Origin: an uncultured Chitinophaga sp.
GTDB lineage: Bacteria; Bacteroidota; Bacteroidia; NS11-12g; UBA9320
Length of the DNA: 64,000 bases
Assembly: GCA_964355045.1 (NCBI GenBank)
Contig: CAYHCM010000002.1
Coordinates: 10,565-74,564 of the forward strand
Reading direction: 5' to 3'
Of this stretch, positions 2,861 to 44,097 are shown one piece after another. Each line of letters starts with the position of its first letter. Positions within the stretch are counted from its first letter, which is position 1. The position numbers were made by a program, and so were the translations under genes. Under the pieces are notes generated by a model. It did no database searches. It was not told the DNA's origin and was given only the letters and a program-made list of their open reading frames with translations.

Positions 2861-2993
2861 GAAATCGTAAATCGTAAAACTAAAATCTAAATTATTAAAA
2901 TGCATCCCCCTGCCCCCTTCGCCAATGCTCAATCCTTTGCGCAAGGGGGACATTCACCCGAAAAATTTGTTGTAATTTTGAAATCGTAAATCT
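2857..2993. repeat. 17-bp direct repeat TTTTGAAATCGTAAATC (2857-2873 and 2977-2993) flanking a GC-rich hairpin (~2913-2949, CCCCCTTCGC…GCGCAAGGGGG) in an otherwise AT-rich spacer.
   Basis: Both repeat copies and the hairpin read directly; the local GC island contrasts with its flanks; resembles an insertion with target-site duplication or a local duplication. Confidence 0.45.
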
Positions 2994-3004
2994 AAAATCG
3001 TAAA

Positions 3005-3484
3005 ATGTCAAACCGTATAGCAGTTTTCCCCGGAACCTTCGATCCATTTACCAACGGACATTTGGATATTGTTTTAAAAGCCTTAAAACTTTTTGATACA
3101 GTATTTATAGCCATTGGCCATAATGCAAATAAAAAGCATCTGTTCCCTATTGAAAAACGAATGGAATGGATTAAGGCCGTATTTGCCAATGAACCCAAAG
3201 TGAAGGTAGATTTTTATTCAGGCCTAACAAGCAATTATTGTAAAAAAATCAATGCCGACTTTATAGTTCGTGGCTTAAGAACCAGTTATGATTTTGAATA
3301 TGAAAAACAAATTGCCCGTGTTAATGAACATTTGAACGAAGGCATGCTTAATGTATTTTTAATAAGTGACGAAAGTGTAAGCTCCGTTAGCAGTACTATT
3401 GTTCGCGATTTGATAATATATGATGGGGATTATCAAAGTTTTATTCCGAAAGAAGTTGTGATTGACGTAAAACCTTTGCTATAG
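3005..3484 (+). CDS. coaD: Phosphopantetheine adenylyltransferase.
   Basis: N-terminal 'IAVFPGTFDPFTNGHLDIV' nucleotidyltransferase motif and size (159 aa) typical of CoaD. Confidence 0.9.
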   Translation: MSNRIAVFPGTFDPFTNGHLDIVLKALKLFDTVFIAIGHNANKKHLFPIEKRMEWIKAVFANEPKVKVDFYSGLTSNYCKKINADFIVRGLRTSYDFEYEKQIARVNEHLNEGMLNVFLISDESVSSVSSTIVRDLIIYDGDYQSFIPKEVVIDVKPLL

Positions 3485-4043
3485 CCGGATAGGTTTGCAT
3501 TTTCTCAGGGTTATAATTTTTCATATCCATCCACATGGCTTCTGTAATATTTTCTTCAGCCTGAGGTTTTAAGGATTCTGTCCCTTCATATTTCATCATA
3601 AACCAATAGGTGGTTTTTAAAATCCATTGGTTTTTATGAGCATAAACATGATAGGATGGTTTAAGTTTTTTGGTAACAGAAACCCCATTTATTCCACATT
3701 CTTCTTCAACTTCCCTTACTGCTCCCGAAATTTTGGTTTCTCCTTTTTCCAATTTACCTTTTGGTAAATCCCATTTCCCCAATCGTTCAATAAGTAATAA
3801 TTCACCTTTTTCATTTATTACAACACCTCCGGCAGCCTTGATATGTTTAAAATGTTTTTTAATGTCTTTCAATATTTTAGATTTATCACCGGTTATCAAT
3901 ACCTTGGAATTTTTAGAATTGAGAAAAAGTACAATAATAAATTTTAGCTGTGAATCCGTAGGATTATCATAAATATCTGTAAAACCGGGTTTTGGTTTTT
4001 TAGAAATATTAATTTGGTTTTGTTCGTAAAAAATGGTTTTCAT
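3441..4043 (-). CDS. NUDIX hydrolase.
   Basis: Nudix box 'GGVVINEKGELLLIERLGKWDLPKGKLEKGETKISGAVREVEEECG'; its 3' end overlaps the 3' end of coaD by 44 nt (convergent). Confidence 0.8.
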   Translation of the reverse strand: MKTIFYEQNQINISKKPKPGFTDIYDNPTDSQLKFIIVLFLNSKNSKVLITGDKSKILKDIKKHFKHIKAAGGVVINEKGELLLIERLGKWDLPKGKLEKGETKISGAVREVEEECGINGVSVTKKLKPSYHVYAHKNQWILKTTYWFMMKYEGTESLKPQAEENITEAMWMDMKNYNPEKMQTYPAIAKVLRQSQLLSE

Positions 4044-4077
4044 TGGTTTATCTCTGTAAGTTTGCGTTTCAAAAAAT

Positions 4078-4713
4078 ATGAATCCTGAAACATCCTCAAA
4101 AGTAGCTCAATATTTATTGGAAGCCAAAGCTGTAAAACTTAATCCTGAAAATCCGTTTACATGGGCATCAGGCTGGAAATCGCCCATTTATTGTGATAAC
4201 CGATGGACACTTTCATATCCTGGAATAAGAAGTTATATTAAGAAATCGTTGGCTTTGGGAATAAAAGAAAACTTTCCGGAAGTTGATATTTTGGTAGGAG
4301 TAGCCACAGCCGGAATAGCCATTGGTGCTTTGGCTGCCGATGAGCTTAATTTGCCATTTGCCTATGCCCGACCAAAGCCCAAAGAGCACGGTTTGAAAAA
4401 TCAGATTGAAGGCAAGGTAGAAATTGGCCAAAAAATTGTGGTTGTTGAAGATTTAATTTCGACCGGAGGAAGCAGCCTTAAAGTGGTTGAATATTTAAGG
4501 GAAAACGGACACATAGTTTTGGGTATGGCCGCTATATTTACGTATGGTTTTGGTGTAGCCGATGAAAGTTTTAAAAAAGCCAATTGCCCGCTTTTAACAC
4601 TAAGCAATTACTCCATATTGGTTGAAGAGGCTTTAAAATCAGGGTATGTTTCAGAGCAGCAAATAAAAAGTTTGGCCGAATGGCGAACCAATCCATCTGT
4701 ATGGAATCAATGA
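4078..4713 (+). CDS. pyrE: Orotate phosphoribosyltransferase.
   Basis: PRPP-binding motif 'KIVVVEDLISTGGSS' and overall PyrE-like length and sequence. Confidence 0.85.
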   Translation: MNPETSSKVAQYLLEAKAVKLNPENPFTWASGWKSPIYCDNRWTLSYPGIRSYIKKSLALGIKENFPEVDILVGVATAGIAIGALAADELNLPFAYARPKPKEHGLKNQIEGKVEIGQKIVVVEDLISTGGSSLKVVEYLRENGHIVLGMAAIFTYGFGVADESFKKANCPLLTLSNYSILVEEALKSGYVSEQQIKSLAEWRTNPSVWNQ

Positions 4714-4778
4714 AATTTCATGAAAATATTTTGAGTGTTGTAATAACTTTATATCTTTGACACTTAAACCCTAAAAAA

Positions 4779-5285
4779 ATGAATACTAAAATCAAAAATC
4801 TTCTTTTAAAAATGCGTCCATCAGGACTAATTATCGGCATAGTTATTGGTGCTACAGCCGTTTTTATTATTCAAAAAATATCTTTCTCCGATAAACTGGC
4901 TGCCAATGTATTGCCCGGTTCAGCGGCTCCTGTTTGCGGACTTACCCAAATGCCTGCTTCAAATACTACAAGCGGCATTATAACTACCGAAGCTGAATAT
5001 AACATGGCTGTAACTGCATACCAGCAAGCCCATCCTGATAATTCGCCGAGCGTAACCTGGGGGGGTATGATTGGAAAAAATCATTTGATTGCCATTATTA
5101 ATTCTCTTGCACCCGAGGCTACAGAAGTAAATTTTAAATTTATTTCAAATGCCGGTAATAATAAAACCAGTTTGTTTTTTCAGGGAGGAACTTACAATCC
5201 GGTAAGTGGTGATTTAGGAACTTCGAAATTATTTATCCGAACAGGTTCTGTATCTGATGCATTTTGTCCGCCGCGTTGTAATTAA
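4779..5285 (+). CDS. Hypothetical membrane-anchored protein with an N-terminal TM helix and a C-terminal CPPRC motif.
   Basis: ORF with hydrophobic segment 'LIIGIVIGATAVFII'; no recognised domain. Confidence 0.4.
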   Translation: MNTKIKNLLLKMRPSGLIIGIVIGATAVFIIQKISFSDKLAANVLPGSAAPVCGLTQMPASNTTSGIITTEAEYNMAVTAYQQAHPDNSPSVTWGGMIGKNHLIAIINSLAPEATEVNFKFISNAGNNKTSLFFQGGTYNPVSGDLGTSKLFIRTGSVSDAFCPPRCN

Positions 5286-5398
5286 AGATTTTACAATTAA
5301 TATTTTAGCTGAAAAGGCTTATGATTTAATAACTCCACTTTGAAAAGCGGAGTTATTAAATCGGTATGGGATTAATTTTGAAAACTTTACTTTGATGG

Positions 5399-5998
5399 TT
5401 ATTTAATATGATAAAATATATCTTCAACAGCTGCTTTCAGCTTTGGAAAAATGACACTTTCTATAGTGTCATCCTCTGTAAAAGGTTGCAATCCTATATA
5501 TTTACCTTTTTGTAAAGTATAAATCCAAACTGTTTTATTGGCAGGCTCTGCAATCCAATATTCCTGTACACCACATTCTTGATATAATTCAAACTTTGTA
5601 CTTAGCTCGTGTTTTGTATTGCCCGGTGATAAAATTTCTATGACCAAATCAGGAGCTCCATTATACCCTTGTTCATCCAATTTTGACTCATCACAAATTA
5701 CGCATAAATCGGGTTGTACAACGGTTGACGTAATCTTCCCTGAAGGAATTGGTAGCCGAACATCGAATGGAGCGAGATAAACCCTGCACGATTTTTTATG
5801 AAAAAAATTAATGAAAACTCTTGCTAAATCTGAAACGGTACTCTGATGCCGCTCATTTGGAGCTGGACTCATTTTTCTAATTCTACCACGAATCAATTCC
5901 ACTCTGTCACTAAATTGCCAAAGTAAATAATCAGCATAAGTATAGGTGCCATTAAGGTCGAGTTTTGTATAATCGGTTATAATTCCTTCCGCATTCAT
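5399..5998 (-). CDS. Uma2-family (DUF820) putative endonuclease, second paralog.
   Basis: '…PDLVIEILSPGN…KFELYQECGVQEYWIAEP' core typical of Uma2/DUF820; similar to the protein at 2238-2816. Confidence 0.6.
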   Translation of the reverse strand: MNAEGIITDYTKLDLNGTYTYADYLLWQFSDRVELIRGRIRKMSPAPNERHQSTVSDLARVFINFFHKKSCRVYLAPFDVRLPIPSGKITSTVVQPDLCVICDESKLDEQGYNGAPDLVIEILSPGNTKHELSTKFELYQECGVQEYWIAEPANKTVWIYTLQKGKYIGLQPFTEDDTIESVIFPKLKAAVEDIFYHIK

Positions 5999-6228
5999 GA
6001 TTACGAAATTAATTTATTTTTCAAAGAAAGACACGAACTTAACAGGAATTTTTTATTTTTCAAAATAGTTTAAACCGAAATGCGCTTATTTGTTGGAATC
6101 CTTAACCAAATGTAATCGGCTGCTTAATCTTAATTGTTTTAGAATTGAATTTATACAGAAACATAAGGATAAAATGTTAAAACTTTTCTAATCTACCATT
6201 CATATGTATAATTTTTATTTTTTATAGC

Positions 6229-6448: not shown

Positions 6449-6520
6449 AGTTTAAAAATAAAAATAAATTACATATTAAACCCTATTTGATGAATTAACC
6501 CTGATGCCGAATAATTAATT

Positions 6521-7528
6521 TTATTTGCAATACTTATCCAAAAATTCTTTGGCCATTTCACCGCTTTGCTTAAACTCTTTGCAAGCTGCGCCTGTATTTC
6601 CAAGGTTTATTTCGGCTACTCCCATATTGTAATGAATAAGTTCCCGATCAGGATAATTTAGCATTAATGCAATAGACAGATCATTGAGTGCTTTGGTGTA
6701 GTCTTTATTTTCGAGGTGAAATATTGCACGATCAAAAAACAATCTCGCCTCCTGATTATTTAATTTTATGGCGCTCGAATAATCCTCAATGGCAGCGCTA
6801 TATATTTCCATAGCAGCATACGCTTCACCGCGTTTAAGAAATGCTATGTAATTTGTTTTTTCATTAATAAGATACACCGTGTAATCTTCAATAGCTTTTT
6901 TGTAATTTTTTTTCAAAAGGTAATAATGTCCTCTCGACAAAAATAATTCAATGTTATCCGGTTCCAAATCAATAGCCTTACTCATATCAGCAATGGCACC
7001 GCTTGTGTCCAGCATCCTTAGTCTTACGGTACTTCGGGTTGAATAATCATCGGAAGTAGATGGGCTAAAACTTAAATAGGTTTCAAGATCTTTATCGGCC
7101 AAATCCATTAAATTTAATTTGCTGAGTGTATTGCTTCTTGCCAGATATGCATCCGGATCGCCGGGTTTTAAATTCAAATACCGGTTAAAATCTTTTAATG
7201 CATTAGTGTAATCTTTGGTCATATAGTTTAAAAACCCCCGGTTAAAATAGGCATCTATCAATGTGGGTTTCAGACTAAGTGCATTATTTATATCTTTATA
7301 TGCTTCGGGATACGAAAGCAATTCGCCATATACCGAACCCCTGCCTAAATAGGCCTCAGCAAATTCAGGATTAATATCTATGGCGGTTGTATAATCTTTG
7401 ATGGCACCCAGCATATTGCCTTCTTCCATTTTATTATTGCCACTTTGCACCCATTGTTCAGCCGATTGACAATAGCTGTATTGAACAGAAAAAATTGGTA
7501 ATAAGAGGTAAAATAATTTTTTGACCAT
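6521..7528 (-). CDS. Tetratricopeptide-repeat protein with a signal peptide.
   Basis: Multiple TPR-like 34-aa repeats (…AYLGRGSVYGELLSYPEAYKDINNALSLKP…); N-terminal signal peptide. Confidence 0.7.
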   Translation of the reverse strand: MVKKLFYLLLPIFSVQYSYCQSAEQWVQSGNNKMEEGNMLGAIKDYTTAIDINPEFAEAYLGRGSVYGELLSYPEAYKDINNALSLKPTLIDAYFNRGFLNYMTKDYTNALKDFNRYLNLKPGDPDAYLARSNTLSKLNLMDLADKDLETYLSFSPSTSDDYSTRSTVRLRMLDTSGAIADMSKAIDLEPDNIELFLSRGHYYLLKKNYKKAIEDYTVYLINEKTNYIAFLKRGEAYAAMEIYSAAIEDYSSAIKLNNQEARLFFDRAIFHLENKDYTKALNDLSIALMLNYPDRELIHYNMGVAEINLGNTGAACKEFKQSGEMAKEFLDKYCK

Positions 7529-7701
7529 AATAACCGTATTAATTTACTGACAAAAGTAAAGCAATAACTTTTTTTAACATCTATTTCAGATTTGCCTTAT
7601 TTCCACAGAATATGTATTAATTACATATTATTGTACATTGAATTATTTACGAATTTAGTCCCGATAGGAATCGGGAAGATTTACGATTTTTATTAAAAAC
7701 T

Positions 7702-8442
7702 ATGAGATCAAAACGCCAAAAACTTTTTATTGTACTGGGAGGCTTTTTTATAATAAATGCCATTGTCGCCGAGTTTATTGGGGTCAAAATATTTTCACTG
7801 GAAACTACCTTAGGGTTGCAGCCATTTAAAATTCCGCTATTTGGCTCAGAGTTTTCATTTAACCTTACAGCCGGCGTATTGCTATGGCCGGTGGTTTTTG
7901 TAATGACGGATATTATCAACGAACATTTTGGAATAAAGGGGGTAAAGTTTCTTTCATGGCTTACGGCAGCCTTAATTGTCTATGCCTTTTTTATGGTATT
8001 TATGGCTATCCAATTAGTGCCGGCCATTTGGTGGCCGGGCTCTCAATCAGCTAATGGAGTGCAGGATATGCAGGTTGCATTCAGGTCGGTATTCGGGCAG
8101 GGATTATGGATAATCGTGGGTTCACTTATTTCTTTTTTGGTTGGGCAAATATTGGATGCGGTTATTTTTCAAAAGCTAAAACTTATTTACAAACATAAAA
8201 TGTTATGGTTAAGGGCTACTGTTTCTACGCTTTTTTCACAATTAATTGACAGCTACTTAGTGCTTTTTATTGCCTTTTATATTGGAAACAATTGGTCATT
8301 CCAAAAGGTATTGAGTATTGGAACCGGAAATTATATTTATAAATTTTGTATAGCCATACTTATGATTCCGGTTTTGTATTTCATCCATTATTTAATAAAC
8401 AACTATTTGAAAAATGATGTGGAAGATTTGGAAGGGAACTGA
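7702..8442 (+). CDS. Queuosine-precursor transporter family (YhhQ/DUF165) integral membrane protein.
   Basis: Polytopic membrane protein with 'VVFVMTDIINEHFG' signature characteristic of the YhhQ family. Confidence 0.65.
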   Translation: MRSKRQKLFIVLGGFFIINAIVAEFIGVKIFSLETTLGLQPFKIPLFGSEFSFNLTAGVLLWPVVFVMTDIINEHFGIKGVKFLSWLTAALIVYAFFMVFMAIQLVPAIWWPGSQSANGVQDMQVAFRSVFGQGLWIIVGSLISFLVGQILDAVIFQKLKLIYKHKMLWLRATVSTLFSQLIDSYLVLFIAFYIGNNWSFQKVLSIGTGNYIYKFCIAILMIPVLYFIHYLINNYLKNDVEDLEGN

Positions 8443-8467: not shown

Positions 8468-9679
8468 TTAGCTAAATGAGGTCATAAATTCATTGCCAGG
8501 TATTAATTTTATTATATTTTTATCAAACTGTAATGTGTCTTTTTGATTCTTGGTTATTATAAGTCCTTCTTCCAATTTAAAAAAACGCATGGCTTCCAAT
8601 AAGCCATTAATTTCACGGTCTTTATTATCGCTGTGGATTTCTTCACAAACCTGAATAAGCATTTTACACGTATCTTTTTCAAATACAACAAAATCACATT
8701 CCCCTTTTTCTCTGAAATAATAAAGTGAAAAAGGTTTTTTTCGCAAATAAAGATAAACTGCATTTTCGAGCAATCTTCCTTTATCCTTAGTAAAACTAAG
8801 TGAATTCGCATTTACCAAACCATTATCTATGGCATACACTTTTCTGGGATTGACGGTAATGTTTTTTGCCGACCAGCTAAATTTTGGTAAAAAAAATAAA
8901 ATATAGGTATCTTCTAACCATGAGAGATAAGTGGATATAGTATTGGCCGAACCTACAGAAAAAGTTTTCCTTAAACTGTTGTAGGTGCATTCTTTACCAA
9001 TATTTGAAATTAAATAAAGGGCAATATCCATTAAGGTTTTCGAATTCTTAATTCCATATCGCACAGCTATATCTCTAAACACAATATCCTTAAGCAGCAT
9101 TTGTAAAATTTCGAGATTATCATCTCTCAAAAACTCCGGAAACCCTCCGTTCTGTATATAAAATTCAAAATGGGTAGCTGAATTTTCTAATTTTTTAAAA
9201 TCAAGAAATTCGGTGTATGAAAATGGAAATAATTCATGGCGTATATGCCGGCCTGTGAGCCGGGTGCCTAATTCTTTGCTTAACAGCGATGCATTGGAGC
9301 CTGTAATAAAAACCTTTTCGCCTCTATCATGTAATTGCCTAATAAATATTTCCCAGGAATTTACGTTCTGTATTTCATCAAAAAAGTAGGCTTCAGTATT
9401 GTTACCAATTATTTCATCTAATTTTTGAAAATCACTTATTTCAAAATTATATACCCGTGCATCTTCAAAATTAAAGTAAGCTATACCACCCTGATAATGC
9501 TGCATCCACTGTTTCAAAAGCGTGCTTTTGCCGGACCTTCTTACACCTGAAATAACTTCGATATGTTTGCTTTTGGGTAGTATTTTATTTAAATACGATC
9601 GTTCAGTAAAAGCTTGAATTGTTTTTACATGAGCCTGCTGAATTGTATATGCATTCTCTATTTCTGATTTTAGTACCAT
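8468..9679 (-). CDS. AAA-type ATPase (predicted ATPase, AAA_14/DUF4143-like).
   Basis: Walker A 'GVRRSGKST' near the N-terminus; architecture like the COG1373 ATPases. Confidence 0.6.
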   Translation of the reverse strand: MVLKSEIENAYTIQQAHVKTIQAFTERSYLNKILPKSKHIEVISGVRRSGKSTLLKQWMQHYQGGIAYFNFEDARVYNFEISDFQKLDEIIGNNTEAYFFDEIQNVNSWEIFIRQLHDRGEKVFITGSNASLLSKELGTRLTGRHIRHELFPFSYTEFLDFKKLENSATHFEFYIQNGGFPEFLRDDNLEILQMLLKDIVFRDIAVRYGIKNSKTLMDIALYLISNIGKECTYNSLRKTFSVGSANTISTYLSWLEDTYILFFLPKFSWSAKNITVNPRKVYAIDNGLVNANSLSFTKDKGRLLENAVYLYLRKKPFSLYYFREKGECDFVVFEKDTCKMLIQVCEEIHSDNKDREINGLLEAMRFFKLEEGLIITKNQKDTLQFDKNIIKLIPGNEFMTSFS

Positions 9680-9850
9680 TCTGTTTTTGCATTAATCCTG
9701 ATGCAAAAATACAATAGTTTATATTACCAAAATACAAAAGTTTATTTTACTAAAATACAATAGTTTATATTGGCAATATAAACTATTGAGTTTTAGGTAT
9801 CTTTTTATCGTAATAAAATCTGAATAAATATTAGAAATCCGAAAATAGAA

Positions 9851-17614: not shown

Positions 17615-17980
17615 ATGAGTAGTGTTTACAAATACAGACAAAGATTCAGTTATTATCCGGAAGTGGTATTGGCTGATAAAATTTATTGTAACAGAGATAA
17701 TCGCACCAAACTCAAGGCGCTAAACATAACCCTAAAGGCAAAACCTTTAGGCAGACCAAAGGCAGTGGTGGAAGAACACTTAAGACCGGGCGAACGAAAT
17801 CCAATAGAAGGTAAGTTTGGACAAGCTAAATCCGGATATGGAATGAATCGTATAAAACCAAGACTTCAGCAAACCAGCGAATCTTGCATAGCCACAATAA
17901 TATTGGTACTTAACCTGGTTAAATTAGCCGGGGAAGTACCCCTATGTCTGTTGAAATTGATGATAACTTATTCAGCATAG
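17615..17980 (+). mobile_element. C-terminal fragment of a third DDE transposase (IS4/IS1380-superfamily-like), opposite in orientation to the IS5-like element.
   Basis: '…NPIEGKFGQAKSGYGMNRIKPRLQQTSESCIATIILVLNLVKL' matches the conserved C-terminal 'IEGxFGxxKxxxGLxRIxxRL…NL' transposase motif; no N-terminal part is present. Confidence 0.5.
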
Positions 17981-30100: not shown

Positions 30101-33100
30101 ATAACCTGTACTGGTATTGAGTATATTATTATAAAAAATATTGTTTTTAATATTTACAGTTTCTGTCGGTGAACTTATGGTTCCTGTAAGTTCTATACAA
30201 GCTGAATTTGTTGTTCCGCCTGAAATTCCTGCCAGGTATATGCTGTTATTATAATAATTATTTGAATATATTGTATTTTGAAAAATACCCTTATATGTAT
30301 AAGGTCCACTTATAGCATTACCAATAGAGTCAACCCCTAAACGAATCATATTATTTTGATAGGTTGCAGTTCCTCCGTAATTATAAATACCGGTCATATT
30401 TCCGGCAGCGGAGGTAGCTAATCCAAAACTGTGAATAAAGTTATTATTAACGATTGAATAATTGCCAAACGTAGTAGCGGTAGTAAAATAAATACCTAAA
30501 ATAGTAGCTGCGGCAGAGGTATTGTAGTTATAAAAATTATAAATAGAATTGCCTGTTATATTTTTATTGGCTGAGGCTGATAAAACATAAATGCCGGTAA
30601 TAGAAGCCGGAGTAAGAGCTGTCGTGCTGCTGTTAGATGAAAAATTACGAATTTTGTTATTTTTCATATAGGTCAAAGTTGATTGAATATTAATTCCAAG
30701 AATATAGGTACCCGCATTGGCAGTGGCACTAAAATTTTCGATGGTATTATTATTAATAGTTGCAGGTAATCCGGTATTATAACTTATACCAACAATACAT
30801 GATGTTTGATTGGCAGCGGTACTGGTACTTGCAGTTGTTAGGTCACTTATAATATTATTTGTTATATCGGTAGCGCCTGAAGCGATATACATACCTTCAA
30901 TTTGAGTAGAAGCGGCAGCAGTAGAAATAAGATTTCTTATTTCATTACCATTATATACACATCCATTAGTGCCCTGATGATATATACCAATAATAGCGGC
31001 TGATGAGGTATTACTGGTGCTTGGAGAACTACTTAACAAACCATTAATTTTATTTCCTTTTATCTGGGTAATACCTGCAATATTCATAATTCCGATTACA
31101 CGGGTTTGGCCGGTAGTGGTTGTACTGCTTAACGCTTCCGAAATACTGCCTCCTACTATGTTATCTGTAATAAATTGGTTATTGGAAGACGACTGCATTA
31201 AAATTCCAATAAGCACTGCTGAAGTTGTAGAACCGGCATTGGCTGAATTGGTAACAAAATTTCGGATGATATTATTAGTAATGTACACCGAAGCGCCACC
31301 TGTATTAACAATACCCCTGATAGCTCCGGATGTACTTGTGTTATTTTGGGAAATATTGGCAATCGTATTATAACTCATTACCATATCATGGAAAGCGGAA
31401 GATGAAATGCCGATCATCGCATTATTACCTAATGAACTTATACTATTGGCAGTAGATGCATGCCCAATCGTATTTCCTTTGCCTGCTGCGCCTCCAAGTA
31501 TAAGAGATCCACCTTGAGGGTTGATACCCATAAATTGAGCCGAATTGGTTGTACTTGTAAAACTGATATTTTGAATTACATTATTTTGAACCAATGTTGG
31601 CGTACCCGGGTTACACGAAATTCTGATACCGGCCATAGTAGCCGATGAAGAACTATTAACCAGCGGAGAACCCCCACAATTGGCTAAAGTTCCTCCAATA
31701 TAATTATTGCTAATTATATTTGCTATGGAAAGTGAAGTAGTTCCCGGTAAAAAATTAATAGCCACCCAGTTTGTGCTTGTAGTACCTGCCGTAGTAGCGC
31801 TATCATAAAAACTATTATTGGTTATCGTCCATTTTTCACCATTACCTAATGAATTAACTACATTTATTCCATAATTATAGAAGGAATGAATTTCATTATC
31901 GGTAATAGTAATATTATCTGTTTGAATTAACAGGTTAGAAGTTGGTGACGATGTAATAGCCGAATATAAAAAGGAGGTAGCAGATGACCTGGTAATCAAA
32001 TTATTTGAAATTACGTTACTGTCATTTCCAAAAAACTTGTTGGAAGTTCCTAAAAAAATTGCCCCGCTTGCCGGGTTGGTATTTGATGAGCGGATATTGC
32101 AATATTTAATAGTATTGCGTATGGCATCATTCTGCAAAGTAAAAACTGTACCGCTTCCACTTGTATTCGAAAAAGATAATTCCTTTGAAGTTCCTGTTCC
32201 ACCGGGGCGACCATCAAATGTAACCCTGTAGGCGTTGTCCAAAATAAATAAGGCCGTGGCACTATTGCCGGATATTACCAAATTAGTAGCACCTGAGGCA
32301 GGCCGTATAGTAAGCTGTGGATTAGAATTGGCTGTTCCGCAAATATTTGTAGTAAATATTGGTATAGTTATAGGGAAACTTTCAACAGATGACGCATACG
32401 TGCTCTGTAATTCCAACACAACACTCCCGTTAAATCCTTTAAGTTTTAAAGAATCAGAAGCCATTTTTATAGATGAGAATGTGCCGGTAGGTCCTACGGA
32501 ATAGCTTCCGCTTAAAGGGGTTTGTGCTCCATAAAAACTTATATTGGTCAGGTTGGTATCATTGCTATGTGCTGAATCTAAGCTATATCCGGTAAATGAT
32601 TTCATGGTTAAAGCACCTTTGAGGGCAGCAGTATTTAATGTACCCATGTGTATGGTATCAGTGCCTCCTATTGCAAGGGTTCTGGTATATGATTTTGTAA
32701 ACGTTCCGGTGGTTACTCCTGATAATTGCATAGTAACAGGTATAGAGGATGTAATGCTGTTTTTACCTGAATTTTTTATTTGTACAATAAACGGATCGGC
32801 TGTAGCACCGCAAACATACGTTGGGCTTATTAAGGCTGAAATACCAACATCATTTGCATCAGCATCCAGGTTAATGGTATAATCTTCTGCTTCGCCATAG
32901 CTCAGGTCATCACATGAACCTGAATTGGTTGTAGGACAAGTACTAAAATAATACTCTGATCTAATTCTCATGCGAGTGGTACCTACGGTTACTGATGAAG
33001 GTATGGTTACATTAAAATAGGTTAAGGTAGATGAACCGTTCGGAACATTACCAACTGAATAAACACAATTTGGAGGAGACATCCATTCACCTGCATCTAA

Positions 33101-33496
33101 AAAATCGTTATCCCCGTTTAAATCAATCCATATCATCATATTTACAGGATAAGTAGGACCCGTGGTAAACCCGAATGAATAGGTTTTCCCTGCCTTTAGC
33201 GTAAACATGGGAGAACTACTCAAAAGAGTGTACTGGCCTGAGGAAGATTTACAACCACTATTTGTTGTGGTATGTGCACGATTAAATAGCGTGGTGGAGC
33301 CTAACTTAATTTCCACCGCATTTACCGACATTCCGTAAGTCGTGCAATTTCCACTTTGTCCACTATAAACAGGGGTACAATAGGGAGACTGCGCTTTGGC
33401 AATACCGCCAAATAGCGATAATAGAAAAACCGGTAACAAGGTTTTAGTAAAACTGTTTGATAAATTTTTGTTTAATTGAGTAGAATTTTTTTTCAT
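18167..33496 (-). CDS. Giant 5109-aa T9SS-secreted surface protein (adhesin-like). N- to C-terminus it has: a signal peptide; a GEVED-like N-terminal domain ('…DDLSYGEAEDYTINL'); a CARDB-like domain; three paralogous right-handed beta-helix modules of ~1000 aa each; a PKD-like domain; 3 Ig-like repeats; ~16 PKD repeats ('W.FGDG' motif); a PKD-like domain; and a type-A T9SS CTD.
   Basis: Single uninterrupted 15,330-nt ORF. Module starts 'PASGATNLVISGNSATALFILDNAYRVTFDG', 'SAASRRAVTGSGTGGMIRLNGADRVKITG' and 'DSLTNTERLISGNVGSMIRLDGADRVKFSG', with matching module ends '…LHLSSGNPAESAGDPTVTSVLDDFDNQVRSG…' and '…LHLSGTNTAEGNGAMDVPTTDDFDGNIRSG…'. C-terminal 'YPNPNKDNFTVEV…MNVYDQLGREI…AGIYSAKLVTDKGLTTILRFEVKN'. 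Confidence 0.85.
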   Translation of the reverse strand: MKKNSTQLNKNLSNSFTKTLLPVFLLSLFGGIAKAQSPYCTPVYSGQSGNCTTYGMSVNAVEIKLGSTTLFNRAHTTTNSGCKSSSGQYTLLSSSPMFTLKAGKTYSFGFTTGPTYPVNMMIWIDLNGDNDFLDAGEWMSPPNCVYSVGNVPNGSSTLTYFNVTIPSSVTVGTTRMRIRSEYYFSTCPTTNSGSCDDLSYGEAEDYTINLDADANDVGISALISPTYVCGATADPFIVQIKNSGKNSITSSIPVTMQLSGVTTGTFTKSYTRTLAIGGTDTIHMGTLNTAALKGALTMKSFTGYSLDSAHSNDTNLTNISFYGAQTPLSGSYSVGPTGTFSSIKMASDSLKLKGFNGSVVLELQSTYASSVESFPITIPIFTTNICGTANSNPQLTIRPASGATNLVISGNSATALFILDNAYRVTFDGRPGGTGTSKELSFSNTSGSGTVFTLQNDAIRNTIKYCNIRSSNTNPASGAIFLGTSNKFFGNDSNVISNNLITRSSATSFLYSAITSSPTSNLLIQTDNITITDNEIHSFYNYGINVVNSLGNGEKWTITNNSFYDSATTAGTTSTNWVAINFLPGTTSLSIANIISNNYIGGTLANCGGSPLVNSSSSATMAGIRISCNPGTPTLVQNNVIQNISFTSTTNSAQFMGINPQGGSLILGGAAGKGNTIGHASTANSISSLGNNAMIGISSSAFHDMVMSYNTIANISQNNTSTSGAIRGIVNTGGASVYITNNIIRNFVTNSANAGSTTSAVLIGILMQSSSNNQFITDNIVGGSISEALSSTTTTGQTRVIGIMNIAGITQIKGNKINGLLSSSPSTSNTSSAAIIGIYHQGTNGCVYNGNEIRNLISTAAASTQIEGMYIASGATDITNNIISDLTTASTSTAANQTSCIVGISYNTGLPATINNNTIENFSATANAGTYILGINIQSTLTYMKNNKIRNFSSNSSTTALTPASITGIYVLSASANKNITGNSIYNFYNYNTSAAATILGIYFTTATTFGNYSIVNNNFIHSFGLATSAAGNMTGIYNYGGTATYQNNMIRLGVDSIGNAISGPYTYKGIFQNTIYSNNYYNNSIYLAGISGGTTNSACIELTGTISSPTETVNIKNNIFYNNILNTSTGYNAGISITTNNGRIFSNHNIIYTPNTMGVAGLISTTPYTNLTGASSWNSATLLDGQSGSSNPNYLTPNGTSSTVDLHLSSGNPAESAGDPTVTSVLDDFDNQVRSGLTPNDIGADAGTFTKSGDKFPPIINLNPLTNTSSTSDRTFTVNIIDNGLGMPKTTANAPRVYYKKGSGTVYSGAGSLTSGNQQNGVWTFTINATTLGGVSNADIISYYILAQDSAGNVVSNAMYAIASSVSSVSTDPTTPNTYMIVPSLSTSIDVGSGQTYTTLTETGAAGLFNAINNSGLQGNTVINITSDMTETGAVALNQWIETGGSGYTLTIRPSAASRRAVTGSGTGGMIRLNGADRVKITGMPTGGSSTDTFLFIKTTSTSDPVITLLNDAVNNTIENCVVEGSTTSAILLSATGMVTGNDNNTFIRSYIRAINGSGMTNGIQSLGQLPTAVLPELMNDNITIRECRIYNFTSFGITVAANSGGNNWRILNNHFYRTPSNPATSAQTAINFVPGIISNNDTISGNFIGGMEPYCGGSAFNNSAMSAFNGILLSAGTQDGVQVQGNTIQNFLFSGTGTLTILFTGININGGVVDVGGTTGNNIGDAATSNSIQTNGNAGLIGINSTTSFKLTVNNNIISNLTATGGTVYTSTAVRGIMISTTTYELNVRNNTVQNFNATSSNSGSSTSAAVVGIGVSSGGSVQNILNNTVKNLKNLRNVGNHCMVGLYTLAGLNKTKGNIISGLVSSTANPNSVSTASGIIGLLMNGNLGNSECSDNIISDLQYVSSTPATVQMMGLYISSGSGLKIHNNTISSLNSMTTSTGTQYSAGIIGLCYSGGGTFISFTGNTIHSLNHTNTATANAVNVIGLVSLAASSNTPYLVSRNNIHSLKLSTSGAGTMIGILNYGYSGTYENNMIRIGIDSAGNAFSGPYNVYGIQQLITNSTSAYYYHNSVYLGGSPGSGASVTSAFSLPVAFSATTTRVVIKNNIFHNAVSNTGSASGKNFAMQLQSTSLIFSNNNILYANGTGGITGNIISTATDYTNLSGAASWQSATGFDLNSGSGDPGFVNPTGNALAVNLHLSGTNTAEGNGAMDVPTTDDFDGNIRSGRTPVDIGAHSGNFSLSSDIIAPVITFNLLNNASTTSGSRTVSNVSITDNAGIPMSGTNIPRIYFSKNGSTWYSSAATALTGSNKNAVATFAIDYSTMGGVATGDTIRYYIIAQDNAGNLRSNGLYAVASDVNTITTHPAIPLTYKLVGALAAGSKLRVGTGKTYPTLTGAGGLFEYLNTVSLGGDVTAVISSNTDEPGTFGLNQLGDNGGGTYTLTIRPDSLTNTERLISGNVGSMIRLDGADRVKFSGIPDFNGGGTDRKLRFRNTNTAGQVFLFINEATDNRLNNLNIESGNSSITSGVIQFSTSTKMLGNSRDTVSNCLIEHNRTGVFPLGVPAVDIYSLGDVGKENTANVIMGNEITNFTQYGIWIANVGNGNNWNISGNSFYRSLSIPAFALQYSIFMDVQYQSGGHLISGNYIGGSAKNCGGAPWVNNANVDFRAISFTSGSLFMPSTISNNVIQNIRRTNIGTGATFFGIISQNSVSVNILNNLIGHPTDINSIVLSGGAQHSILTHQSNGNCNIIGNTIQGINCPMQGVAENIVCIFPTNGLCTIRKNLVGSTTVANSIQNSGTGSIIGIQAQMTSLNAPTVLIDSNVVANMTSYGVESGISFRGIVFGNSGTSIPTITNNKVFNCSVNCSNITSVFATNTIVAATGIGIYAIVLGGRVANNTVYNIRANNTGAAPTIVTGLFVNFANNTIFSNNRVYDIINLSTNTNINAPAVACGIMIATAQNSITLQNNQISLGTGQTNSPMYIGIWQSTSGNFTINSFFNSVYIGGTATSGIHSSFGYLRGNNYVTSSYTSIVNAKSNILMNDRKGGTGKHYAIGNQNVITTFQTGWQNNASNYNLLSNSSAYPVALWNITDYNFSDWKANSRSDLNSPYIPSGTSGGEINPDMFVNRAIGDLNLDPSKSGTAEVAYKGMSLTGIAKDFVYITRNSTTPTIGSFEAFGKDAGVSAIVSPTNTTCAASNTQVTVSIKNYGFLSQSNISVTLKVTGSATVTSTQNFAGPLAAGATASYTFPDNINTLAGGTYTIKAYTNLTGEEQRGNDTSMSTITIVPKPTPVASGTNPACEKSTATYSTTLKTGMSYSWSVTGGTIQSGQNTNSISVKWGTVGTASVSVTETITALSCNGSNTLNVTLNPLPKANFTYTDTCGGNFVNFTSASTVSGGTITANSWKFGDATSGTGNTTTHKYTTTSASYSVRIISTSNSGCTDSADKSIFILKTLSAGVIGASQTICYNTTPALITTTTAPSGSISPYTNQWQVSTDNVNFTNISGATGQDYQPGTLTTTTYYRRSTTTAACGPAVSNTVTITVGTLLNPGVIGTAQTICFNGTGSALGFSTTPTGAVGGYTYQWQQSSDSATWSNISGQTSSSFTPTNVTSVTYYRNLVFSGSCPSAGTNGVKIKLYSPITGGSIASGQTICAGTAPAAFTQTAAATGGPGTYTFQWQSSTDSSTWTNISGATSSTYSSGTLSTLTYFQRLAGSTGCPSGTSNAIKVRTNAKPTVSYTASNHCFNDPMPVTNSSTISSGSLTYLWKFGDGTGSTSSVPTKTYTSSGTYTVTLTATSNQGCKDSAIKSVIVATTPSPSFTFSLKCQGDSVIFVDNTVYACGSGSGLQFHWNFGDATTSNVQHARHHYSSAGTYNVKFRISLSGGFKDSITKVVVFNIRSTPNFSATNECFPAATTFTNTSTGFASLAWSFGDASTSTTTNTSFTKTYATAGTYSAKLVSTSTFGCKDSLIKTVNVFSKPKATFSVSNNCLGVSTSFNNSSSGASVYQWTFGDANTSTATNPTNTYATAGTYTVKLKITSTNGCLDSTTNTVTIHPKPVADFSAANVCNGFTSTFTNNSTGASTYSWDFGNGNTSTTASPTYTYPTAGTYNVTLTATTSNGCTHAVTKSYTVNVSPKANFSGSNVCLGSSITFSNSSTGAATNSWNFGDATTSTAAAPTKTYATSGNFTVKLVVTNTFGCKDSTTKSVTIFAKPVPAFTANNQCLGTAVSFTNQSTGATSTIWVFGDGKSSAANSPNYTYATAGTYTVKLITTSVNGCKDSLSKTVTVYARPVVSFTASPDPICRGGLMNFTNTTTNGSTYQWTFGNGNTSTATSPTNIYNTEGNYNVKLVANSVNACKDSANKTVTVWPRPKASFNVNNGCTSDNLGFATNSVGAVGHEWTFGDGNSSTVANPAKGYANAGTYNIQLIVTSINGCKDTSRSTVTVHPRASVSFTNPSNFCLGLSTTFTNTTTLSAGTMTHQWSFGDGNTSSNTSPTNTYKAGGNYTVTLTTTTDKGCQNRNTSSILVYGKPAANFNAGNACAGATVTFNNTTIGGTTYAWDFGNSATSTLTSPTQSYTNAGTYSVKLTATNANNCTDAVTKQIIIYANPVANFTASDRCIGTAIAFTNTSGGASDVSWQFGDGSSSNSFNPSYSYTSPGSYNVTLNIKSVYGCQATVSKSVTVFAAPKAAFSINDNGQCINGNNFIYTDNSTIASGTYNRAWTLGDGSTSTATNATRTYASAGNYTVRLVITSNNGCKDSTNNPVMVYPKPVANFNINNSSQCINSNLFAFTDASTISDGSITRVWNLGDGSSQGGISILKQYSATGTYTVTLGVTSDFGCTDVISKTVTVNSSPAAAFTINNETQCLNSNNFGFTNTSPGASGFTNTWRFGDGTNVSTINASRTYAAAGNYVVTLRLSNASGCRDSSQYTVKVLPNPAAIIVSGPNTALNGSTKIYSVTATPGSTYNWVATNGVVLSNGASMIQVKWNTTGIAGTVTVTETGANGCQGTPANYNVALSTTGINTINRNAFAASLYPNPNKDNFTVEVSTGDMVTMNVYDQLGREILSGYRFSSRITISDHNLPAGIYSAKLVTDKGLTTILRFEVKN
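18650..22800. repeat. Tandem ~255-bp coding repeats (PKD-domain array) inside the giant gene.
   Basis: About 16 successive ~85-aa units each containing '[WF].FGDG/FGNG…T…Y…G.Y.V.L…N..GC.D'; they produce the many stop-free antisense ORFs listed in the ORF track. Confidence 0.7.
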
Positions 33497-34890: not shown

Positions 34891-34898
34891 ATAGATTT

Positions 34899-35092
34899 TG
34901 AGATGTGAGTACAGAGATTGTGAGAAATGTAACTTTGATAAATATATTATTTACCAAAATTTTTATTTCGAACATTTAAGTTCTCTATTATTCTCATTTC
35001 TCAAAGTCCCATATCTTTGAATTCATATCTCTGTACTCATATCTCTGTACTCATATCTCTTTACTCATATCTCTTTACTCATATCTCTGTAC
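34899..35092. repeat. 14-bp tandem repeat TCATATCTCT(G/T)TAC in 5 copies at 35023-35092 with a degenerate leading copy, plus an inverted copy (GAGTACAGAGAT) at 34899-34925.
   Basis: Read directly; lies between anmK and the dehydrogenase gene, immediately 5' of the AAATCTAAAATCGTAAATC motif. Confidence 0.7.
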
Positions 35093-35133
35093 CAAAAATC
35101 TAAAATCGTAAATCTAAAATCGTAAATCCCTAC

Positions 35134-36360: not shown

Positions 36361-36387
36361 AGAAACACGGCTTGCTCAGTTTTTATG

Positions 36388-36453
36388 GGGGAGACACTGA
36401 GAACATGGAGAGACACAGAGAGACAAAGAAAAGGGAGACAGAGGAAAACGGAG
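36388..36453. repeat. GA-rich 'GAGACA(C)AGAGA' dispersed repeat copy.
   Basis: 'GGAGACACTGAGAACATGGAGAGACACAGAGAGACAAAGAAAAGGGAGACAGAGGAAAACGGAGG'; related copies at 39995-40075 and, inverted, at 40129-40166. Confidence 0.55.
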
Positions 36454-36480
36454 GATCTTTTAAATGTTGTTTTTGAAAAT

Positions 36481-36591
36481 AAAATGTTCAATAAACAATA
36501 ATCAATTTTCAATAATCAATTGGCTTCGCCATCAATAATAGCAGCCGTTAGGTATTGAAAATTGTGTATTGAAAATTGATTATTGAACATT
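36481..36591. repeat. Long imperfect palindrome with ~40-bp arms (AAAATGTTCAATAA…TCAATTTTCAATA) and a 31-bp spacer, between convergent genes.
   Basis: Left arm 36481-36521 against the reverse complement of right arm 36553-36591: ~32/36 matches with a 4-nt indel; possible bidirectional terminator or protein binding site. Confidence 0.55.
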
Positions 36592-36658
36592 TTTTTAGAA
36601 TTTGTAGCTTGAAATTTGGATTTTGGAATTTTTCCTTTAACCTTTTTACTTTAACCTT

Positions 36659-38972: not shown

Positions 38973-39030
38973 AAATTAGATACAAATTTATACAGAATAT
39001 TTAAAAAATTATACCTACCCAAAATTATCG

Positions 39031-40128: not shown

Positions 40129-40193
40129 TTCTCCGTGTTTCTCTTTGTTCTCTGTATCTCCATGTTAATTTTCCGAATTCATCAAGCCCAAAG

Positions 40194-42206: not shown

Positions 42207-42356
42207 TATTATTCATTTTCATTGGTAAATAAATTTTTTGGACGTTTCTTTTTACCTTGAAATTATTAAAATCCAATATAGTGAACAAAATATGGCAGAA
42301 GATGAACTTTAAAAAATTTAGATTAAACTTTTATCAAATGTTAGTGATTAAAATAA

Positions 42357-42785
42357 TCAAGGATTAAAAATCATTTTAAAATGCTGAATCCCTGCCTCTT
42401 CAAACTGGGGGCCTGTGCGTTGAAAACCGGCTTTAGCATAAAGAGGCATGGCTTCTATTTGGGCATGTAAATAAATCGTTTTGTTAAAAGGTTTCACATC
42501 ATTCAATAATCGGTTTACCAATTTCAAGGCAATACCTTTTCGGCGGAATTCTGCCAATACTGCAAAACGTTCCAATTTTATTCCATTCTCGGTTTCCCTC
42601 CATCGGGCAGTTGCCACTGAAGTTTTATCAATAAAGGCCAGATAATGCTGACATATTTCTTCGTTTTCATATTCCAGTTCGGGAGGACATTCCTGTTCTA
42701 TTACAAACACCTGTTGGCGTATGGCAAAGGCTTTTCTCATAAAAGAAGTATCGGAAAACGTAAATCGTATAATTTCGATAGGCAT
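42357..42785 (-). CDS. GNAT-family N-acetyltransferase.
   Basis: '…LERFAVLAEFRRKGIALKLVNRLL…' acetyl-CoA-binding motif A (R/Q-x-x-G-x-G/A). Confidence 0.7.
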   Translation of the reverse strand: MPIEIIRFTFSDTSFMRKAFAIRQQVFVIEQECPPELEYENEEICQHYLAFIDKTSVATARWRETENGIKLERFAVLAEFRRKGIALKLVNRLLNDVKPFNKTIYLHAQIEAMPLYAKAGFQRTGPQFEEAGIQHFKMIFNP

Positions 42786-42970
42786 GGCTGCAAAAATATA
42801 TCAATAAAACGAACACGGAAAAACAAAACGGTGTAAACATTCTAAATAAAATCTACATTGGTATTTTTTTTAATTTAATGTAAGTTTGCCACCCTAATTA
42901 GCCTTTAATAAAAAAGGCAAAATTTCAAATTTCAAATTTCAAATTTCAAAAATCGTAAATCTAAAATAAA

Positions 42971-44029
42971 ATGGGCATATCCAAAATAACCGAACTCTTA
43001 GGCTCCCATGCCGATTCACTTTTAAACCATACAAGCAAAACAATAAGTAAAGACAGGCTGCATTTACCAAACCCCGATTATTATATGGATTCGTATGGTA
43101 TGAGCAATCGCAATGCGCAGGTATTGCGCAGCCTTGGTCAAATCTACAATTCAGGCCGATTGGCCAAAACAGGTTATGTATCAATATTACCGGTTGATCA
43201 GGGAATTGAACATAGTGCCGGTGCTTCGTTTGCACCCAATCCTGATTATTTCGATCCTGAGAATATTATTAAATTAGCCATCGAAGGGGGTTGTAATGCA
43301 GTAGCTTCCACCTTTGGAGTGCTTGCTTCATGTTCACGTCAGTATGCGCATAAAATTCCGTTCATAGTAAAAATTAACCATAACGAATTTATATCATACC
43401 CCAACCGTTTCAACCAATTTATGTTTGGAAGTGTAGAAGAAGCCTGGAATTTAGGAGCGGTAGCCGTAGGTGCCACTATTTACTTTGGTTCACCCGAAAG
43501 CGACCGGCAGATAATTGAAGTAGCTCAGGCGTTTGAACGAGCCCATGAACTTGGAATGGCTACCGTGCTTTGGTGTTATTTACGAAATAATGCATTTAAA
43601 AAAGACGGCGTGGATTATCATGCAAGTGCTGATTTAACAGGCCAGGCCAACCATTTAGGTGTAACCATTCAGGCTGATATTATTAAACAAAAACTTCCTG
43701 AAAATAATGGGGGCTATACCGCCATTAATTTTGGTAAAACCCATGCAAAGGTTTACAGTGAACTTACATCTGACAATCCAATTGACCTTTGCCGTTATCA
43801 GGTGGCCAATTGTTATATGGGCAAAGTGGGTTTGATAAATTCAGGAGGCGAAAGCAAAGGAGCAACCGATTTGGCCGAAGCTGTAAGAACAGCAGTAATT
43901 AATAAAAGAGCCGGGGGCTGCGGTTTAATTTCCGGACGCAAATCATTCCAAAAACCATTGAAAGACGGTATTGAATTATTAAATTCAATTCAGGATGTAT
44001 ATCTTTCAAAAGAAGTTACTATTGCATAA
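42971..44029 (+). CDS. fbaB: Class I fructose-bisphosphate aldolase (FbaB type).
   Basis: Near-collinear with E. coli FbaB: '[53 protein letters not shown]…VKINHNE…[10 protein letters not shown]…[18 protein letters not shown]…[15 protein letters not shown]'. Confidence 0.9.
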
Positions 44030-44034
44030 TATCC

Positions 44035-44062
44035 ATTGCCGTTGCTTTAAAGCAACGGCAAT
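44035..44062 (+). terminator. Hairpin ATTGCCGTTGC-TTTAA-AGCAACGGCAAT directly after the fbaB stop.
   Basis: 11-bp perfect stem read directly; no clean T-tract; the accD start codon follows only 36 nt later. Confidence 0.45.
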
Positions 44063-44097
44063 AAATCTAAAATCATAAATCTAAAATCGCAAATCGA

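Follow-up and report, generated by a model that had tools for sequence, protein, structure and literature searches.

Tandem AAATCNN heptanucleotide repeats that abut start codons in a Bacteroidota contig, and their occurrence across bacterial phyla and phages: a putative leader independent of Shine-Dalgarno pairing

Heptanucleotide arrays at gene starts in the window

The stretch of DNA analysed here (the window) comprises 64,000 nucleotides of contig CAYHCM010000002.1 (positions 10,565 to 74,564, forward strand) from the assembly GCA_964355045.1 of an uncultured Chitinophaga sp. (GTDB lineage Bacteroidota; Bacteroidia; NS11-12g; UBA9320); it is a metagenome contig, also recorded as NODE_313 of ENA ERZ4201064. 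It is approximately 35% GC, carries CHU_C, HmuY and Plug genes, and has A-rich start regions with TAnnTTTG boxes, which we take to be the -7 promoter box of Bacteroidota; no Shine-Dalgarno (SD) sequence was found in the upstream regions of the window genes. The element under study is a set of short tandem repeats, (AAATCNN)n, that stand directly before several of these genes.

Five arrays of AAATCNN units (3-5 units each; at least three units in register, with at most one core mismatch and at least two exact cores) were found in the window, all on the + strand, compared with a mean of 0.11 and a maximum of 2 in 100 first-order Markov simulations; the bare 10-mer is in weak excess (27 matches, 15.9 expected). 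Four of the five end 0-3 nt 5' of an ATG, namely those of coaD, the Glu/Leu/Phe/Val dehydrogenase gene (GDH), fbaB and accD (Table 1), and thus occupy the place of an SD sequence or A-rich leader, as an earlier note on this DNA had observed. The sequences described in that note were confirmed to within a few bases, and its gene identities agree with the domains found (CTP_transf_like for the coaD-like gene, Vut_1 for the yhhQ-like gene, and ELFV_dehydrog, DeoC and Carboxyl_trans for the others). It had counted five abutted start codons; four are abutted in the sense orientation, but the fifth, that of the yhhQ-like gene, has only a split antisense copy. Similarly, what it had listed as a duplicate at 2857-2873 is indeed a copy (2862-2889), but not a mere duplicate, as it lies 10 nt before an ATG at 2900.

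The period of the repeat, determined with Tandem Repeats Finder (TRF) at all sites, is 7 nt, or 14 nt where GT and TA units (AAATCGT / AAATCTA) alternate. The 12-mer direct repeats and 12-bp periodicity of the earlier note are therefore to be replaced, the supposed 12-mers being one and a half heptamers. Over the whole window, intergenic DNA gives autocorrelation peaks at lags of 7, 14, 21 and 28, whereas coding DNA gives period 3 alone. The unit 3' of the 20-mer used for genome searches (see below), which is free of the search pattern, reads A/A/A/T at 83-85% in its first four positions, C (67%) or T (24%) in the fifth, is near-uniform in the sixth and has mainly A or T in the seventh. Thus, each unit consists of a 5-base core and a 2-base spacer, and the arrays belong to a single family of interspersed tandem heptanucleotide repeats, (AAATCNN)n, in which n is approximately 3-6. 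The window also has many other arrays, of period 7, 10 and 14, with unrelated units.

Table 1. Arrays, promoter-like boxes, hairpins and associated repeats at the array-bearing loci of the window
Feature	Position	Strand	Context
(AAATCNN)x4 array, AAATCGT AAATCGT AAAACTA AAATCTA	2862-2889	+	ends 10 nt before ATG 2900
GC-rich 29-codon open reading frame (ORF) (MHPPAPFANAQSFAQGGHSPEKFVVILKS), ATG at 2900	2900-2989	+	internal CCCCC/GGGGG stem
TAATTTTG, match to -7 box TAnnTTTG	2973-2980	+	directly 5' of coaD array
Array, AAATCGT AAATCTA AAATCGT + AAA	2981-3004 (units 2981-3001)	+	abuts coaD ATG 3005
Reverse copy, pieces 7646-7658 and 7677-7689	7646-7689	-	antisense to yhhQ-like (Vut_1) gene
Hairpin TCCCGAT-AGGA-ATCGGGA, 7 bp	7659-7676		splits reverse copy
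Inverted copy of leader units	34894-34918	+	just 3' of AnmK stop codon
14-nt tandem repeat CATATCTCTGTACT x5.9, (CATATCT CTGTACT) = two heptamers per unit	35010-35092	+	most of GDH leader
-7-like box TATCTTTG	35012-35019	+	114 nt before GDH ATG; 14-nt repeat begins there
5-unit array, AAATCTA AAATCGT AAATCTA AAATCGT AAATCCC	35096-35130	+	3 nt before GDH ATG 35134
-7-like box TAAGTTTG	42881-42888	+	82 nt before fbaB ATG
Small hairpin GCCTTT-AATAAA-AAAGGC	42901-42918	+	5' end of fbaB leader
(AAATTTC)x4, second heptamer family	42920-42947	+	runs straight into fbaB AAATC array
Array, AAATCGT AAATCTA AAATAAA	42950-42970	+	abuts fbaB (DeoC-family aldolase) ATG 42971
12-bp GC-rich hairpin	44035-44062	+	3' of fbaB stop codon, directly 5' of accD array
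5-unit array, AAATCTA AAATCAT AAATCTA AAATCGC AAATCGA	44063-44097	+	abuts accD (carboxyl-transferase) ATG 44098

Direct repeats of 31 nt (2855-2885 and 2974-3004) stand on either side of the short ORF upstream of coaD. The stop codon of this ORF is within the coaD array. The ORF may represent a leader peptide, a small RNA or an insertion that entered an array; between approximately 2700 and 3100, Rfam returned sub-threshold chance matches alone. The GDH gene, whose closest named homologues are proteins of metagenome-assembled genomes (MAGs) labelled "Flavobacteriales" or "Bacteroidia" (75-81% identity), has behind the preceding AnmK gene an inverted copy that is 95% complementary to two segments of its leader (35027-45 and 35041-59) and 72% complementary to a third (35083-35107). 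The 86-nt spacer that holds the hairpin between fbaB and accD has a predicted fold of -20.9 kcal/mol (z = -4.6).

The reverse copy ends 12 nt before the ATG of the yhhQ-like gene (7702). Its interpretation (as 7641-7690) as the sense leader of the divergent minus-strand gene at 6521-7528 was rejected because the -7-like box of that gene (TACTTTTG) lies between the copy and its ATG, approximately 80-130 nt from the array. It is very unlikely that 7625-7715 (+ strand) encodes an antisense small RNA, there being no U run directly after the hairpin and a fold no better than those of shuffled sequences.

Occurrence, orientation and position of arrays in other genomes

A scan of 185,579 species genomes for the 20-mer AAATCRTAAATCTAAAATCR identified at least 117 loci, which are named here after the taxa given in the records (mis-binning is possible for some short MAG contigs). 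Approximately 80 loci belong to several classes of Bacteroidota. The other groups contribute approximately 37 loci among the matches listed: Chloroflexota (10), Planctomycetota (6, including Kuenenia, Scalindua and Brocadiaceae), Verrucomicrobiota with Kiritimatiellae (5), Patescibacteria (5), "Deltaproteobacteria" with Desulfobacteraceae (4), Ignavibacteriota with Kapaibacteriota (3), and one locus each in Magnetobacteriaceae, Nostoc, Blastocatellia and a MAG labelled Reyranella. Several matches lie on contigs 0.08-3.3 Mb long or within sequence of 57-66% GC. Cultured carriers include Chitinophaga rupis DSM 21039, Butyricimonas muris, Flavobacterium collinsii and Pedobacter xixiisoli. None of the matches listed is from Firmicutes, Actinobacteria or Gammaproteobacteria.

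The enrichment near start codons extends to these genomes. With a crude rule for ORFs in the public loci (ATG only, at least 80 codons), a same-strand ORF begins within 15 nt of the array end for 34 of 122 arrays, mostly at distances of -3 to +4 nt, and an opposite-strand ORF for only 3. The bias is 26 sense versus 1 antisense in Bacteroidota and 8 versus 2 in other phyla, and 79 further arrays, whose inclusion did not depend on the search pattern, have a weaker bias in the same direction (13 versus 4). The argument of the earlier note that occurrence in both orientations indicates a DNA-level site is thus not supported, as orientation is strongly one-sided across genomes. Distances of 21-35 nt form a second cluster that combines two situations. 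In SD-using lineages (loci L014 and L080), the array lies upstream and is followed by an SD sequence; in approximately nine Bacteroidota loci, the array ends shortly before a -7 box. The genes downstream of arrays are a housekeeping miscellany with no regulon logic.

An inverted copy, (GATTTNN)n, accompanies many A-rich arrays, preceding the array in 25 cases and following it in 2. Several of these inverted/sense pairs form hairpins right after stop codons (for example, at loci L103 and L041), and the window shares this layout, its inverted copy following the AnmK stop codon and its sense arrays preceding the GDH ATG. In a Patescibacteria MAG (L035, approximately 150-5830), AAATC-family arrays, some of them in inverted pairs, are found in the spacers of a tRNA gene cluster. 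Two contigs of the Saprospiraceae MAG Prado044 (L023 and L029) have approximately 95 nt in common, ending in an AAATC array, and then diverge; the array there is either the edge of a larger repeated element or an assembly breakpoint.

Arrays in phage genomes

The same 20-mer was found in 11 stretches of IMG/VR, representing 10 independent contexts, all of which are flanked by further AAATC units; several of these arrays abut an ATG or a tRNA gene. Five control patterns with permuted cores gave 1, 4, 8, 4 and 0 stretches in viral contigs, most of them coding sequence repeated across related phages, and the control scans yielded at most one or two short heptamer runs and no comparable set of independent arrays. 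One such run (L231, 3915-3934: AAACTAT AAACTTA AAACT) abuts an ATG and hints at further A-rich heptamer families.

On a phage contig of 62% GC (L207), four genes of the structural module, including that of the major head protein (phrog_212), have arrays before their ATG. The gene that starts at 9217 is separated from the preceding stop codon by hardly anything other than its array, and a neighbouring gene has GAGGAG in place of the array. Another phage contig (L206) also has four array-led genes. This usage is the strongest indication that an array can serve as a translation-initiation region. A BLAST search of cultured phages with a 48-nt array gave no match, which is uninformative, as the low-complexity filter may be the cause, and no near match to the fbaB locus was found in plasmids.

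Promoter context and predicted RNA structure

TAnnTTTG boxes are located upstream of the coaD, GDH and fbaB arrays in the window, and 61-64 nt upstream of the array in two aconitase loci of Ferruginibacter. If these boxes are promoters, the arrays would be transcribed as the 3' part of the 5' untranslated region (UTR). That the arrays are transcribed, that they enhance translation and which partner binds them are inferences. The alternative that the arrays supply sigma-70-type -10 boxes (TAAAAT) and give leaderless mRNAs was rejected, because the distance from the end of TAAAAT to the ATG is only 3-4 nt at several starts and 13 nt at others, and because Bacteroidota use a different promoter consensus.

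Folded alone, three of the four start-abutting array segments of the window give 0.0 kcal/mol, and the 51-nt fbaB block, composed of AAATTTC and AAATC units, gives -0.3 kcal/mol. None of the four segments contains ATG, GTG or TTG. In folds of whole leaders, the arrays are predicted to be unpaired beside stable hairpins, and the entire 129-nt GDH leader folds with just -3.4 kcal/mol. Among 55 distinct array-abutted starts, G accounts for 0-7 of the 55 bases at each position from -21 to -1. Complementarity to 16S rRNA was considered and rejected, as it would amount to no more than a 6-nt match to the 790 loop, which is within chance.

Carrier genomes and evolution of the arrays

Loci that carry an array have 2.5-5.4 further array sites per 100 kb if those within 500 nt of the selected array are disregarded, or 8.7-9.0 per 100 kb if nearby arrays are included; the density in the window is approximately 6 sites per 100 kb. 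No array site was found in 283 kb around 80 fbaB orthologues of other Bacteroidota, nor in 135 kb of control viral loci. As judged from these loci, the distribution appears to be all-or-none, with 0 sites in 418 kb of non-carrier loci. Logan assemblies of the window organism (L002, L122 and L123) break inside the arrays flanking fbaB and at the GDH leader, as expected for a multi-copy repeat.

Where related loci can be aligned, arrays are better conserved than their surroundings. In the aconitase genes of two Ferruginibacter species (L010 and L019), the promoter box is common and the array is approximately 92% identical, but the 55 nt between box and array cannot be aligned. An etfA pair (L049 and L077) and a Flavobacterium pair (L018 and L094) are similar, the array being better kept than the flanking UTR. 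For GDH, relatives with 83-88% amino acid identity have leaders of 75-175 nt made of units of period 7 or 8 (AAAATCT, ACATCT, CTGTACT), with 1-6% G and predicted to be nearly structureless, and none contains an AAATC-family array of at least three units. In the GDH leaders, the property persists while the sequence turns over.

One locus recovered from two samples (L120 and L121) is identical, with 0 mismatches in 3181 nt, and in two MAGs of one species (L017 and L119) the arrays are identical though the flanks carry single-nucleotide polymorphisms. In these two comparisons, no copy-number differences between samples or conspecific MAGs were detected.

A portable leader and its alternatives

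The anatomy of the arrays, their strand and position bias, their spread over phyla and phages, their lack of predicted structure and their better conservation than the flanks are observed features for which an explanation must account. The preferred explanation, held tentatively and at somewhat less than an even chance, is that the arrays constitute a portable SD-independent leader or translation-initiation module, which accords with the option of a conserved leader offered in the earlier note. The array would be transcribed from a promoter upstream of it into an RNA, (AAAUCNN)n, that would be A-rich, almost free of G, devoid of AUG, GUG and UUG, and incapable of pairing with itself, with UAA stop codons that would rotate through all three frames because 7 is not a multiple of 3. 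As the last 20-40 nt of the leader, ending 0-10 nt before the AUG, it would act as a landing pad for the ribosome, an open stretch from which the ribosome is delivered to the start codon, and its partner would presumably be ribosomal protein S1 or another single-strand RNA binder of the OB-fold or RRM type with a register of approximately 7 nt. The same freedom from structure would suit an array as the 5' leader of a tRNA, and an array together with its inverted copy would form the long hairpins that follow stop codons.

Such a leader agrees with known features of initiation in Bacteroidia, in which the openness of the start region and the upstream bases matter and SD pairing does not (PMC6847099); in Flavobacterium johnsoniae, mRNA structure and upstream bases tune initiation, and AUG is depleted near starts (PMC6847099). 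In a bolder form, at least 10 phyla and their phages would share a horizontally spreading, sequence-specific system for the SD-independent recruitment of ribosomes or RNA-binding proteins, with (AAAUCNN)n as its cis element and a dedicated trans factor that reads the 5-base core in a 7-nt register and defines the carriers; this extension is considered clearly unlikely.

Several observations weigh against a leader of this kind. The last AAATC core stands at a variable distance (5-22 nt) from the ATG rather than in a fixed register, and A is not enriched at -3 among array-abutted starts, so that any recognition is not SD-like. The start regions of the four array genes of the window are only modestly more open than those of its other genes (n = 4). 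More than half of the arrays have no detectable adjacent ATG-ORF. Five arrays lie 5' of a same-strand tRNA gene, 2-3 nt (in one case 20 nt) before the mature 5' end, where translation is irrelevant. In Bacteroidota, approximately nine arrays are followed, 3-12 nt after their end, by a TAnnTTTG box and would therefore be outside the mRNA of the gene concerned. Finally, none of the 80 fbaB orthologues (71-81% identity) has the array; instead, an ordinary -7 box precedes their ATG by 20-35 nt, which indicates that the array is lineage-specific and dispensable for the gene.

The main rival, rather unlikely in itself, explains many of these observations by treating the arrays as neutral or selfish, microsatellite-like heptamers that spread by slippage, gene conversion or a templated process and persist where they are harmless. 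The A-rich orientation would then be the tolerated one, and expansion would stop at an ATG, the 5' end of a tRNA, a -7 box or a stop codon. Besides the absence from all fbaB orthologues and the lack of a fixed register, this would account for the quick turnover of units in the GDH leaders of relatives, the unrelated arrays of period 7, 10 and 14 in the window (including those of a convergent 3' spacer), the several kinds of boundary that are abutted besides ATGs, and the all-or-none distribution among loci. However, local slippage would not recreate the same AAATC core in approximately ten phyla and in DNA of 57-66% GC, and permuted patterns gave nothing comparable to the 10 independent arrays of the real pattern in viral contigs. 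Neutral spread is also hard to reconcile with compact phage structural operons in which nothing but the array separates a stop codon from the following ATG, with conservation of the array where the flanking UTR is not conserved, and with the lack of copy-number differences between the samples compared. Against phase-variable simple-sequence repeats that switch expression through copy number, the arrays were identical in both comparisons even where the flanks differed, and the downstream genes are core housekeeping genes; although tandem repeats between promoter and start codon are the layout of Moraxella loci of this type (cited in PMC4679880), phase variation is scarcely credible here.

Recognition by a dedicated regulator at the RNA level is distinctly improbable, though parts of the evidence suit it. 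A single-strand RNA-binding protein of the cold-shock-domain, S1-domain or RRM type, taking up one heptamer per domain, would unite the arrays of a carrier in a post-transcriptional regulon, and a horizontally mobile regulator gene would explain the sporadic distribution. The unit of a 5-base conserved core and a 2-base spacer, the apparently sharp split into carrier and non-carrier genomes and the presence of arrays on both mRNAs and tRNA precursors are consistent with this; CspB binds heptamer repeats with one protein per heptamer (reviewed in PMC4679880), and a heptamer-binding partner has been the subject of speculation in work on Nostoc (bioRxiv 10.1101/2022.06.06.494920). However, no RRM or cold-shock domain was identified in those window proteins that were scanned and no candidate gene was found, the miscellany of downstream genes is not that of a regulon, and phages of different hosts carry the arrays. 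A Rho-loading, rut-like leader, unstructured, with far more C than G and a UC every 7 nt, would terminate transcription if the ORF were left untranslated. The GDH leaders of the window and of four relatives have a composition that fits (75-175 nt, 15-26% C, 1-6% G, almost structureless by prediction), but a full rut site is longer than the 21-42 nt of most arrays, AAATCGT units have as much C as G, and arrays before tRNAs and in phage late operons would be left unexplained, so that the chance of this explanation is remote.

At the DNA level, the arrays might be tandem sites for a transcription factor, such as the response regulator suggested in the earlier note, or an AT-rich UP-like or spacer element of promoters; overall this is very improbable. 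The window does encode an OmpR-type regulator (55153-55851) and has one copy in reverse orientation. Winged-helix proteins bind direct-repeat sites spaced by approximately 10-11 bp, in contrast to the 7-bp period found here, and the strong strand bias, the position of the window arrays downstream of -7 boxes, and the arrays between cistrons of phage operons and between tRNA genes are not those of a transcription-factor site. Because approximately ten phyla and phage structural operons share the core, one local regulator cannot explain it. Thus, a response-regulator site is unsupported with respect to period, strand, position in the window, taxonomic spread and tRNA abutment. The UP-like element fares unevenly: it is contradicted in the window, where the arrays follow the -7-like boxes, but the approximately nine Bacteroidota arrays that stand just upstream of a box may have such a role, which would concern a minority of arrays outside the window.

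If the arrays are indeed SD-independent leaders, they would bear on the open question of how bacteria without SD pairing (Bacteroidota and many environmental phyla) find and rank their start codons. A discrete module of 20-40 nt would give a concrete handle on this choice, as its position, sequence and number could be varied in reporter assays. It might also serve as a ribosome-binding-site part for the engineering of Bacteroidota and help to locate start codons in metagenomes. The apparently all-or-none occurrence of arrays in genomes suggests a spreading mechanism or a trans factor.

Other repeats and genes of the window

The GDH gene and an M23 peptidase gene converge on a spacer (36361-36658) that consists almost entirely of arrays of period 7, 10 and 14 and includes a 43-nt inverted pair (TCAATAA-type versus ATTGAAA-type) that would form a long hairpin. 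At 47642-47780, a 24-nt repeat (CCAAGCGAAGCCTTCCTTAACCCA, x3.8) with inverted copies, similar to repetitive extragenic palindromic (REP) sequences, lies beside an ORF fragment (47803-48165) that resembles the C-terminal part of a Y1/IS200-type transposase; the fragment was considered as a RAYT-type transposase that mobilises the repeats, and this was rejected as it has no Pfam match. A 23-nt tandem repeat (AAAATACAATAGTTTATATTACC, x2.9) is located at 9706-9771, upstream of the minus-strand gene at 8468-9679. The window also includes a giant ORF of 5109 amino acids (18167-33496, - strand) with PKD, GEVED and CHU_C-type domains, partly in a GC-rich stretch (45% at 20-24 kb), and two Uma2-family (putative restriction endonuclease-like) genes plus a DDE transposase fragment (2238-2816, 5399-5998 and 17615-17980).

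Comparison with known repeats and leaders

The earlier note knew of no described element with this sequence. This is true of AAATCNN itself: the whole window had no Rfam 15 match at gathering score, and no searchable paper contains AAATCGTAAATC, related 12-mers appearing in irrelevant contexts alone. The kind of element, however, has been described: direct repeats of TAACTGA stand next to start codons in Beggiatoaceae, in certain cyanobacteria and in five Bacteroidetes (PMC4679880, 2015), and a role in translation was proposed for them but never tested (PMC4679880).

Other multi-copy elements are more distant. REP sequences and bacterial interspersed mosaic elements are likewise short, numerous and strictly intergenic, and often form inverted pairs with hairpins after stop codons, but the AAATCNN unit is not a palindrome, and single arrays are biased to gene starts instead of 3' ends; no transposase associated with the arrays was identified. 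The short tandemly repeated repetitive sequences of cyanobacteria, also heptamer repeats, have units that contain G and C and have been used mainly as fingerprinting targets. In Nostoc PCC 7120, TTCAAAA and GACYAAT heptamers occur upstream of recF and recO (bioRxiv 10.1101/2022.06.06.494920). These cyanobacterial heptamers resemble the AAATCNN arrays in being contiguous, in lying within 30-100 nt of the starts or promoters of many genes and in being a suspected global regulatory element with a binding partner, but they have other units, and their deletion affected regulator access in reporters in a way that was not clear-cut.

Among leaders, that of tobacco mosaic virus (omega), which contains direct repeats, is an SD substitute in E. 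coli. The S1-dependent A/U-rich enhancers are similar to the arrays in that an unstructured (in the arrays, by prediction), G-poor and A-rich leader at the AUG replaces the SD sequence, with no alternative starts nearby (Baez et al. 2019, PMC6847099). Unlike the arrays, they are not interspersed multi-copy repeats with a conserved core, and the arrays have neither an A(-3) preference nor a fixed spacing.

The closest counterpart is TAACTGA. Both families have tandem 7-nt units in 2-6 copies per set; both are intergenic, run toward a start codon and end a few nucleotides before it, in spacers without an SD sequence; and neither has a single functional class of gene downstream. The many sets per genome and the sporadic distribution over phyla of TAACTGA are probably features of AAATCNN as well. 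They differ in that AAATCNN has a 5-base core and two variable bases rather than a fixed unit, and TAACTGA doublets are absent from the window and from every fetched locus. AAATCNN also has a wider range, being mostly in Bacteroidota but also in Chloroflexota, Planctomycetota, Verrucomicrobiota, Patescibacteria, Desulfobacterota-type bacteria, Nitrospirota, Ignavibacteriota, Acidobacteriota and a Nostoc, and goes beyond TAACTGA in its presence in phage structural operons, its abutment of tRNA genes and its frequent pairing of an upstream inverted copy with a downstream sense copy. By its head-to-tail 7-nt units, its intergenic position toward the start codon and the lack of an SD sequence in between (in L014 and L080 an SD sequence follows the array), the AAATCNN family is assigned, on sequence characters, to the TAACTGA type of start-abutting heptamer repeats, with a different unit. 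Thus, a class of heptamer direct repeats previously associated with Beggiatoaceae and cyanobacteria is now widened across most of the bacterial tree.

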